Below are positions 31,860-42,861 of a stretch of 64,000 nt of DNA, in pieces. Position 1 is the first letter of the stretch; each line of letters opens with the position of its first letter. The position numbers and the translations under genes are program-made. The stretch covers positions 43,710,001 to 43,774,000 of the forward strand of contig OX597820.1 in assembly GCA_951406725.2 (NCBI GenBank). The letters are read 5' to 3'. The DNA comes from Octopus vulgaris (Eukaryota). The notes beneath the pieces were generated by a model. That model was not told where the DNA came from and ran no database searches. It was given only the letters and a program-made list of their open reading frames with translations.

Positions 31860-33138
31860 TGAGATATTTTCATTAAAGATTTCCCTTGACCAGCTTCACA
31901 AGGACTGGGATAAACGAAACTTGGCATAATTATTAGTCCTTCTCTACATAGCCACCACCATTGGTAACACACTTCTCCCATCATTCTATGCAGCTTTGCG
32001 GTCTTCGTCTGTAAAAGTCGGTAGGTTGCGTCTGAACCCAAGATTTTACCTCGGAAATAAGTTCATCATCATACGAAAAGTGCTTCCCCTTCAAAAACAA
32101 CTTCATGATTGGAAAGAGATGGAATACAGATGGTGCGAGGTCGGGAAACTAAGGATCGTGAGGAAGGACTTCACAGCCGCTTGAGTGTGCTTTCATCTCA
32201 GCAACATGCGCATTGTGAAGTGGGGCGTTGTTTTGGAGGAGGCGGACTCCTTTGGTCAGCATGCCACGTCTCTCTGCTTTAATGGCTTCCCGCAATTTCC
32301 GCAGCAGAGAAGCGTAATATACTCCGTTAATTGTGGTACCCTTTGGCAGAAAATCCATCATCACTACTCTGCGCTGATCCAAAAATACAGTGAGCATCAC
32401 CTTGCCTGCTGAGGGTTGGACACGAGCCTTCTTTTGAGGTGATGAGTTATCATGCTTACATTGCTTCGACTGGACTTTAATCCCAAGATCATAGTGACAG
32501 ACCCATTTTTTATCCTGTGTGATAAGTCTGCCGAAAACGTACTCCTCGTTTTCTTGGCACATTGCCAAAAGTGCCAGGGAGAAATTGATTTGGTTCCTGC
32601 ATTTGAAAAGGTGTGAGCATCTGGGAATCCATAATGCAGGAAACTCCGCATGTGCAAATGGTCACCAATGACTTTTTCCAAGAACTCTACACTTATCTTC
32701 ACTTCTTCGGCTAGATGCCGAATCGTCCAAATTGGCCGCTTCCACTCCATGGATGGTGTCGTCATCAATGGCAAGATATGGTCGTCCAAGAATAGGAGCA
32801 CTTTTCACCGGCGATTGACAACATTTGAACTGGCGTCACCAGTTCTTGTCTACGTCGTATGATGGTGCATCGTCACCATACACTTCTGTCATCTCATTAA
32901 AAGTCTCTTTTGGTCTACGACCTTTCAAGTATAAGAACCTGATCACTGATCTGCATTCAACTGCCTCCATTATAACACCACATTCCACTTCAGCAGCCGT
33001 AAAAGACAAACGAATGCTAGTGAGAAGCTGCAATTTACAATGTAACATGTAGAGACATGTATGATTATATTTGTACAAGTTCCGTTTCCTGCAATAACCT
33101 CGAGTGGGTCAGAGGCAATCCTTAATGAACATCCCTCG
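31860..33138 (-). mobile_element. Full-length decayed mariner transposon
   Basis: RSVIRFLYLKG..VYGDDA, LITQDKKWVCHYD, SAGKVMLTVF, LLQNNAPLH, PDLAPS; degenerate TIRs with TA flanks; ~1.28 kb. Confidence 0.9.
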
Positions 33139-40056: not shown

Positions 40057-40345
40057 TGGAGGCGCAATGGCCCAGTGGTTAGGGCAGCGGACTCGCGGTT
40101 GTAGGATCGCGACTTCGATTCCCAGACCGGGCGTTGTGAGTGTTTATTGAGCGAAAACCCCTAAAGCTCCACGAGCCTCCGGCATGGGGTGGTGGCAATC
40201 ACTGCTGTACTCTTCGCTATAACTTTCTCTCTTTCTTCTGTTGGCCTGCCCGCTTAGCGGGTTGGCGTCATTTGAAGGCTAAAACAATGCGAAGCGCATT
40301 GTGACCAGCGATGTGTAGCAGCAGCTGATAGCCTGGTCGGTCACG

Positions 40346-40377: not shown

Positions 40378-40549
40378 CGCGCGCACGTATGTGCGTACAT
40401 GTACGCACAGAACAGTTCTCTTTAAAGAATGTAGAATTAATAGTAATATGTATGATATTAAAAATCTAAGGAACAAGGAGTGGAGATCTTGTAATATCTT
40501 AGTTTTATATATATATAGTTTAATATATATATATTTTTGATATATATAC

Positions 40550-40757: not shown

Positions 40758-41064
40758 TATACATACATATGTACATATATATATATATACACACACACAT
40801 ATACATTTTACTCATATATATATATATATATATATAATTAATCAATATAGGGTGGCAAAAAAAAATTTTGTAGAATTCTTTTGCCACCAGCGGCCTAGTG
40901 GGAAAAAATTAAATAGTCATAAACCATTTTTAAGTTCAACATCAACAATCAAGGAACGGCCATAATAGGCCATTCACCCACTAGAAATAACAGCCAAACG
41001 CTTTAACCGCAAAATAACGTTAATTCCGTAAACCAGGAGAAAATTGAAAAACATTTACCCTGTA

Positions 41065-41171
41065 ATTTCTTAGACGATGCACCGTTTCATCTTCTGTTTA
41101 ATGGAAAACTAACCTGATTAAATTAAATCAAGCCAATCCACCATAGGCCCTTAGATTCATCAGTAAGAAAT
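41065..41171 (-). ncRNA. Type I hammerhead ribozyme (mirror copy)
   Basis: Reverse complement of 41414-41520. Confidence 0.85.
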
Positions 41172-41413
41172 AGCCAAACCGGAACAGATATTTTTTACGA
41201 GGCATTCTCATTGCTACCTCGTCAATATCTGACCTAAAATTTTCAAATCGTCGCACTCGCGCCAAATTTATCGGCAGCAAATAAATATAAGCCGCCGATT
41301 CCATTTGCTGCCGATAAATTTGGCGCGAGTGCGACGATTTGAAAATTTTAGGTCAGATATTGACGAGGTAGCAATGAGAATGCCTCGTGAAAAATATCTG
41401 TTCCGGTTTGGCT

Positions 41414-41520
41414 ATTTCTTACTGATGAATCTAAGGGCCTATGGTGGATTGGCTTGATTTAATTTAATCAGGTTAGTTTTCCATTAAACAGAAGATGAAA
41501 CGGTGCATCGTCTAAGAAAT
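41414..41520 (+). ncRNA. Type I hammerhead ribozyme, canonical core, long helix II
   Basis: AUUUCUUA CUGAUGA AUCU..AGAU GAAAC GGUGCAUC GUC UAAGAAAU; 8 bp perfect helix I; predicted cut after C41512. Confidence 0.88.
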
Positions 41521-41641
41521 TACAGGGTAAATGTTTTTCAATTTTCTCCTGGTTTACGGAATTAACGTTATTTTGCGGTTAAAGCGTTTGGCTGTTATTT
41601 CTAGTGGGTGAATGGCCTATTATGGCCGTTCCTTGATTGTT

Positions 41642-41677
<36 letters not shown>

Positions 41678-41967
41678 TATACATTTTACTCATATACACA
41701 TGTGATTATATGATATACATTTTCGTGTGTTTGTATATATGTGGGAGGGTTTCTGCATAGTAGAAACGCTTAATACGTTGAATGTTGTTTTTAATCTTAT
41801 TACAGTAAGGAAAGCTTCTGCTTTTTTTTATATATTGCATATAGATGACAGAGGAAATATGGGACGGAAAATCTGAATACAATTGCCAAAATATATACCA
41901 GAAATCTTCCTCGAGACGAAGTCCGAAACACTAACTCCACTAAGGCAAAATGGAAATTTATAATAAT

Positions 41968-42823
41968 ATTTTCAAATTTTGCCACAAGGGCAGCAATTTT
42001 GTGGCAGGCAATGAGTCGATTACATCGATCCCAGTGTTCAGCTAGTATTTGATTTATTGAATGCGAAAGGATGAATGGCAAAGTCGACCTCAACGGAATT
42101 TGATCTCAGAAAGTAACGACATGCGAAATACCGCTAAGCGTTTTGTATAGCGTGCTAACGATTCCGCGTGTTGGCTGCCTTAGTGATAATAATAACTATT
42201 TCTACTGTAGGCACAACGCCTGGATTTTGTAGGGTGAGGAACAGTCGATCACATCGACCCCAGTACTCAACTGGTAGTTAATTTATTGAACCTGAAAGGA
42301 TGAAAGACAAAGTTGACTCCGGCGGAATATGAACTCAGAACGTAGCGGCAAACGAAATACTGCTAAGCATTTCGCCCGGCGTGCTAAAGATTCTGCCAAC
42401 ACACCGCCGTAGTGATAATAATAATGGTTTCGAATTTTGCCACAAGGGCATCAATTTTGAGGGAGGGGACTAGTCGATTACATCGACCCCAGTGTTCAAC
42501 TGGTATTTATTTTATCGATCCCGAACGGATGAAAGGCAAGGTCGGCCTAGGTGGAATTTGAACTCAGAACGTAGCGTCAGAAGAAAACTTCTTATTTCTT
42601 TACTACCCACAAGGGGCTAAACACAGAGGGACAAACAAGGACAGACAAGCGGATGAAGTCGATTACATCGACCCCAGTACGTAACTTGTACTTGTTTAAT
42701 CGACCCCGAAAGGATGAAAGGCAAAGTCGACCTCGGCGGAATTTGAACTCAGAACGTAGCGGCAGACGAAATACCACTCAGCATTTCGCCCGGCGTGCTA
42801 ATGTTTCTGCCAGCTCGCCGCCT
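41968..42823 (-). mobile_element. Tandem array of four family A SINE units
   Basis: ACATCGA(C/T)CCCAGT..GGATGAA..TG A(A/T)CTCAGAA module repeated at ~42020, 42250, 42480, 42665. Confidence 0.85.
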
Positions 42824-42861
42824 TAGTAATAATAATAATGATAATAATAATATACTACTAC

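Follow-up and report, generated by a model that had tools for sequence, protein, structure and literature searches.

The palindrome at 40834–41644 of the 64-kb stretch of DNA analysed here (the window) consists of two single partial monomers of a 493-nt hammerhead-bearing repeat family joined head to head, and its arms stop outwardly at two different fixed ends, a short end A and a long end B, a pairing found in 69 of the 71 simple head-to-head inversions of this family that we identified in the genome. The family forms tandem monomers with a conserved ribozyme core, lies in (TA)n targets and, at loci described below, has private variants in both arms of an insertion. As a single locus the palindrome is real but ordinary for this genome, in which a genome search showed the same structure to be frequent and not unique to this locus. 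We consider it probable that this head-to-head insertion was made with the help of a borrowed Penelope-like enzyme, which would have nicked a TA-rich target on each strand and used a single RNA as template two times, priming at internal site B for one of the strands and at internal site A for the opposite one.

Structure of the palindrome and its ribozymes

The two arms (40941–41282 and 41303–41644) are 342 nt long each, are separated by a gap of 20 nt and differ at a single position (41196/41389, 1/342), as an earlier note made from the sequence alone had described them. That note took the 20 nt for a loop, which they are not: these letters are sequence of the 493-nt family and form part of the left arm, whose last 3 nt (41303–41305) are at the same time the first of the right arm. 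Measured against a real copy that we used as the monomer ruler (L034:6586-7078, with CUGAUGA at 164 and the predicted cut after 254), the long (B) arm occupies 40834–41305 on the reverse strand and spans monomer positions 22–493, the short (A) arm occupies 41303–41644 on the forward strand and spans positions 45–386, and the head-to-head joint (41283–41305) is made of 20 nt of the long arm only and then the 3 nt in which the two overlap. Outwardly, the left arm extends 107 nt beyond the point that corresponds to the end of the right arm (40834–40940, reverse strand), close to the ~105 bp first noted in the direction of (TA)n, and this tail, which lies between short end A (386) and long end B (493), is present in this arm only. 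Folding of the reference monomer predicts a 13-bp hairpin at 40851–40888 (reverse strand) that stops 11–17 nt before end B and an 8-bp hairpin at 41610–41631 (forward strand) that stops ~13 nt before end A, so that both end sites lie 11–17 nt past a predicted hairpin.

The palindrome is framed by a 44-bp direct repeat (40775–40818 and 41653–41696), of which the left copy comprises a TA run, a 24-bp unique core (40790–40813) and the beginning of the next TA run; since only the core is unique and the remainder is TA, the target duplication proposed earlier at ~44 bp holds as one of 24–44 bp. The TA run at the long-end junction (40814–40833) is 20 nt long where the right target copy has 5 nt, so ~15 nt of TA were apparently gained there at priming, and the run at the short-end junction (41645–41667) is 23 nt long where the left target copy has 15 nt, a gain of at least 8 nt; later slippage could instead account for the added TA at either junction. 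An exact-match test, to which duplications within TA runs are invisible, found a duplication of unique sequence at only this one of the 69 inverted loci, and the locus is useful because its duplication holds unique sequence, which places both nicks and shows the TA gain at both junctions. The earlier claim of a very recent insertion agrees with the 1/342 difference between the arms and with the closest sampled monomers (2/424 differences), and the palindrome is supported as a recent retroelement insertion with a target duplication.

Each arm holds a type I hammerhead, the right copy at 41414–41520 on the forward strand (CUGAUGA at 41422, GAAA at 41497, GUC with the predicted cut after C41512) and the left copy, its mirror, at 41065–41171 on the reverse strand (CUGAUGA at 41163, predicted cut at 41073, the mirror of C41512). 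The 8-bp helix I, CUGAUGA, GAAA, GUC and the ~68-nt helix II with an inner stem that had been listed for them were recovered in both arms, as was a helix III with the palindromic loop UGCA, and the core (CUGANGA, GAAA, NUH), the three helices and the open helix I are those of a type I ribozyme. Their diverging orientation is also as described; the two face outward on opposite strands, and a single transcript therefore carries just one. A motif scan of the 64-kb window matched only these two hammerheads. Comparison with Rfam gave nothing at gathering score in the window, and the 18 matches at E ≤ 10 in 40800–41700 were generic hairpins, none of them a hammerhead family, probably because of the 68-nt helix II.

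With ~8% divergence between its subfamilies, the family has the 11 positions of the ribozyme core intact in 204 of 206 monomers, and the cleavage triplet is GUC in 96 monomers and GUA in 108. When 14 ribozyme variants are compared, pairing is kept in 97.9% of the cells; double-sided changes number 4 and all stem from one 77%-identical relative. The computed fold of the isolated ribozyme lies 3.2 kcal/mol above the minimum-energy fold.

The earlier suggestion that a read-through transcript would form double-stranded RNA competing with the ribozyme stands in its energetics, since the computed 342-bp hairpin has −630 kcal/mol and the ribozyme fold −24.8. Such a transcript makes the antisense arm ahead of the ribozyme, so the hairpin would, in this calculation, likely block cleavage in any read-through RNA. 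As to a source of that transcript, the window has 17 long open frames, none of whose translations, judged by eye, reads as a host gene at the palindrome. Words of the family occur in public runs that we guess to be RNA; these are contigs that may hold DNA and are not attributable to the palindrome locus.

A 493-nt retrozyme family with two outward ends

The genome-wide copy search proposed in the earlier note yielded 1,656 candidates, of which 40 were scored; the best of these are 99% identical and lie in arrays of 493-nt period. A 24-letter ribozyme pattern had 2,212 exact matches in 2.8 Gb. Tandem arrays reach ~12 units, and monomers with one type I hammerhead each occur in tandem at many loci. 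There is no frame of at least 150 aa at the palindrome locus and none of at least 200 aa within the arrays at 14 loci. Its sequence would place the family, under the criteria of PMC7229834, in its accessible part, and of bioRxiv 10.64898/2026.07.22.740005, among the non-coding non-LTR retrozymes, with ends that are Penelope-like. The outward ends of its insertions are A, at 386 (382–391 in variants), and B, at 488–493; 251 exact A ends adjoin TA, as do 617 B ends on the forward strand. Five 5′ ends (L039, L043, L058, L109 and the palindrome locus) fall at monomer positions 21–24, directly before a predicted hairpin, and are possibly an RNA start or stop site.

How the two ends combine was examined at 95 loci, namely the palindrome locus, the 14 top matches, 60 A-end matches in list order and 20 B-end matches, with entries that were already in the set passed over. 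These comprise 71 simple head-to-head inversions, 23 uninverted insertions and 1 complex one. Among the simple inversions 69 are A+B, 1 is A+A, 1 has an odd end and none is B+B, and at the lone A+A locus the second end jumps to B sequence. Loci chosen by their B end are A+B in 13 of 13 cases (p = 0.005 against a free 50:50 choice), and the only opposed pair among 61 distinct listed B sites, counted by eye, proved to be two separate insertions 8 kb apart. End A occurs without a long arm at 9 loci, and three loci scored as having A only carry a stub of the B end. Clean TA runs of at least 8 nt lie on both sides of 53 of the 69 inverted loci and interrupted TA runs flank the other 16. The combination of an inverted head-to-head copy and a one-sided tail, by which Penelope-like insertions are recognised, is present at 69 of the 71 simple inversions. 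Two unrelated hammerhead retrozyme families with monomers of 399 and 481 nt were A+B in 2/2 and 5/5 distinct inverted loci, respectively, among 30 fetched. These two families (L175–L204) lie in the same (TA)n target and have only the inner helix I letters in common with the 493-nt family. At L194:1362-2330 a chimera was seen in which a short-end arm of the 481-nt family runs into a 77%-identical relative of the 493-nt family that supplies the long end, which suggests shared machinery.

The inner ends of the arms, mapped against 13 real monomers, are not fixed in this way. Of the 114 inner ends at 57 loci unselected for length, 39 lie at 255–290, just 3′ of the predicted cut (254/255), as against 3 at 219–254. 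The excess is significant only in subfamily 2 (35 vs. 2 of 92); the palindrome copy's own subfamily has 4 vs. 1 of 22 (p = 0.375), and 19 head-to-head joints listed from public contigs have 14 vs. 3 of 38 ends. At 14 of the 57 loci each arm is a short piece of the kind that a ribozyme-cut monomer would yield if primed internally at A and B. This pile-up, mainly of subfamily 2, is an indirect sign that the hammerheads, as their sequence predicts, may self-cleave; it could reflect ribozyme-defined RNA ends, stalling of the polymerase at a folded ribozyme or an AT-rich hot spot of joining. Clustering of long-arm inner ends at A, as in classical non-overlapping twin priming, was seen in 11 top matches and was lost in the larger set. 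The junctions of the 69 loci have overlaps of at least 2 nt in 26, are blunt or share 1 nt in 16 and contain inserted letters in 27, some of which are repeated copies of adjoining sequence; overlaps and templated insertions are expected of polymerase-theta-type joining.

Variants carried by the arms bear on the template. The variant at 41586 in the short arm of the palindrome is common only to the other arm (mirror 40999), and the 34-letter stretch that contains it has exactly 2 matches in 2.8 Gb, one per arm. At the asymmetric locus L070 a variant that occurs 4 times genome-wide is present in both covering monomers of each arm, and such private variants recurring along the array would fit a circular template. 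A third variant tested as private (L108) had 237 matches and is a subfamily marker. At L095 one rearranged unit is present in both arms in a non-mirror register, and at L095 and L044 the same template stretch occurs in both arms, offset by one monomer. The arms of L116 and L032 carry different variants, so use of one template segment is not universal. The arrays of L066, L093, L116 and L032 have variants that alternate (period 2) or return with period 6, a hint that their templates may have been dimers or multimers. Monomers of the same locus were closer to one another than to the nearest other locus at 17 of 40 loci, a signal too shallow to weigh a circle.

Two primers on one RNA as the probable mechanism, and its alternatives

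How might such insertions be made? The RNA template would be a circle, a multimer or a ribozyme-cut linear monomer, and two nicks 24–44 bp apart in neighbouring TA tracts would supply two primers, each of which would gain TA units and then be extended from its own site. At the palindrome the nick that primed synthesis from B would lie on the top strand, in the short TA tract that follows the unique core, and the nick that primed synthesis from A on the bottom strand, in the TA tract that precedes this core, both cDNAs having passed in this copy through an uncut or religated ribozyme. Since cDNAs of the same polarity cannot anneal, host end joining would link the inner ends at short overlaps, from which the palindrome, the target duplication and the tail on one side would all result. 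In vitro, the Penelope-like protein of a lizard, predicted to form a dimer, nicks AT-rich DNA in each strand, extends the two and begins reverse transcription at the two internal sites that bound the tail (PMC11167929); one start per strand would yield the product seen here. The same study reports start sites without a strand difference and ribozyme cleavage that is dispensable in vitro, both of which we count against this model, as we do the facts that the palindrome locus is among the 8 of 69 loci that fit a simple fold-back and that fold-back or conversion between the arms would account for its private variant just as well.

The earlier note had attributed the palindrome to fold-back during reverse transcription, and for this locus its junction (3-nt overlap, 20-nt offset) and the genome-private variant in both arms do fit. 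In the general form of this explanation a B-primed cDNA folds and is copied back, an endonuclease cuts at A and joins the product to the other target strand, and later deletions skew the centres; the accessible portions of PMC3846280 and PMC8557442 contain self-priming and endonuclease-resolution proposals close to it. Near-symmetry at 23 of the 69 loci, 9 of them outside the 255–290 pile-up, is also as fold-back would have it. As a general account it does poorly, since 61 of the 69 loci misfit even when a loop of up to 60 nt is allowed, the short arm extends >60 nt further 5′ than the long arm at 24 loci, and among the near-symmetric loci the short arm is the longer-reaching one in 18 cases vs. 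3 (p = 0.0015), the wrong direction for a copy of the long arm. A 6-letter variant block present in alternate monomers of one arm of L116 is missing from its other arm, end A is also present at 9 loci that have no long arm, and fold-back alone leaves two different fixed arm ends unexplained. The centre of a palindrome tends to suffer deletions afterwards, and these would make the asymmetry test less sharp; because they could rescue fold-back, we regard this explanation as unlikely and give it no lower standing than that.

The different variants in the arms of L116 and L032 and the free lengths of the arms would also be expected if a dimeric particle carried two RNAs from a single source locus and priming took place at A on one of them and at B on the other. 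Locus-private variants are common to both arms at 2 of 3 loci tested, and two such RNAs would require source loci absent from the assembly, so that we consider this explanation quite improbable. A fold-back artefact of assembly or library would be compatible with the fact that no listed contig from 4 public runs crosses the palindrome junction or shows an empty allele, an absence that proves nothing because repeats are skipped in such contigs. The arms, however, are unequal in length and at one base, stop at two fixed family ends and are framed by a target duplication, and like head-to-head joints are present in contigs of independent runs, including those of a second organism; an artefact is accordingly very improbable indeed.

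Copying of one RNA from two primers, which we prefer, has a stronger form that we put forward only tentatively, as possible but on balance doubtful: two-site twin priming might be obligatory for Penelope-like elements, with a dimeric enzyme holding one RNA (often a ribozyme-made circle), its active sites fixed at A and B, TA added in the fashion of telomerase and both cDNAs rolled off the same template. If it were true, a single reaction would account for the inverted arms, for the tail on one side and for the tandem arrays of retrozymes, and the genome would be a record of ribozyme cleavage in the germ line.

Relation to L1, retrozymes and Penelope-like elements

In L1 twin priming two target nicks prime two cDNAs that are joined head to head at short overlaps, the second primer lands variably and the two pieces do not overlap; in the 493-nt family, by contrast, both start sites are internal and do not vary, and each arm often has a copy of one and the same stretch. 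The animal non-LTR retrozymes (PMC7229834, in its accessible part, and bioRxiv 10.64898/2026.07.22.740005) resemble this family in their non-coding tandem monomers of a few hundred nt and low GC, in having one type I hammerhead each with a short helix III and a palindromic loop, and in their dispersed arrays that co-occur with Penelope-like elements. Their published arrays, as far as the accessible text describes them, are head-to-tail, whereas the sampled insertions of the 493-nt family are mostly two head-to-head arrays with two fixed ends in (TA)n; the word "inverted" is absent from PMC7229834. The 493-nt family, known here from genome sequence, differs also in the 68-nt extension that forms its helix II.

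Likeness to endonuclease-bearing Penelope-like elements, as described in the available text of PMC3846280, PMC8557442 and PMC11167929, extends to the head-to-head inverted copy (pLTR) with a tail on one arm, the AT-rich or microsatellite target with a variable target duplication, and the hammerhead upstream of two internal end sites. The 493-nt family differs from them in having no open reading frame and in a tail of 107 nt vs. their 30–40. Those texts give the tail as optional or often one-sided and leave A+B coupling uncounted. Inverted copies, one-sided tails and microsatellite targets are already known for Penelope-like elements, according to the accessible portions of PMC8557442, PMC3846280, PMC2377424 and PMC4209133, and what is available of PMC8557442 treats it as an unresolved question how their insertions come to be tandem and inverted. 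A literature search, beyond whose reach most subscription papers lay, found neither the 493-nt family nor head-to-head retrozymes nor a counted A+B coupling; the strict coupling, then, was not found in print, and the inverted arms and one-sided tails are not new. Mobilisation of retrozymes by Penelope-like elements has so far rested on co-occurrence and repeat similarity, and the end rule adds evidence in the form of a mechanistic signature for retrozyme use of Penelope machinery. Four families of this genome offer young natural products that all obey the same strict end rule, and with an intact enzyme gene present the mechanism is directly assayable.

The intact gene belongs to an autonomous Penelope-like element of the same genome that matches the 493-nt family in target and end pattern. 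Its frame of 1,310–1,312 aa contains RT and GIY-YIG-type segments by pairwise alignment, gave no match in a Pfam search and has a CX2-5CxxC motif like one that the accessible part of PMC8557442 names for Neptune-type elements. The element lies in (TA)n and ends at +35 or +91–94, i.e., at two ends 56–59 nt apart, which are paired A+B in each of the 13 two-ended inversions that 45 fetched, partly overlapping stretches contain, one complex locus being set aside. It is young, with many intact copies and an asparagine-rich N-terminal part (L236:2263-6198; L235–L249), and its repeat has a hammerhead-like motif with CUGAUGC instead of CUGAUGA. A second intact element family (L155–L171) has a 781-aa RT + GIY-YIG frame and a separate frame of ~480 aa ahead of it.

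No partner enzyme with a terminal sequence matching the monomer was found among the fetched elements, 150 of 6,136 endonuclease candidates having been scored. The best candidate was the 1,312-aa element, whose likeness near monomer end A was not significant (shuffle p = 0.11); the terminal sequences of the 781-aa family and of other endonuclease loci are unlike the monomer, and the element beside L178 is decayed and only adjacent. A pattern with the same helix III and a short helix II gave 0 matches, and a looser helix pattern gave two other retrozyme families instead of a partner.

Elsewhere in the window, frames at 2331–2804 and 32149–32661 resemble, respectively, what we take to be fragments of a Helitron helicase and of a mariner transposase, and 40058–40345, 430 bp to the left of the insertion, is presumably a tRNA-like SINE head ending in a TA run. 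The left flank at 40391–40505 is represented in contigs of run X1 only and the right flank in those of all four runs, so the left flank may be polymorphic or filtered. To the right of the insertion, at 41948–42840, a SINE-like repeat of 229 bp is present in three to four tandem copies that have diverged.
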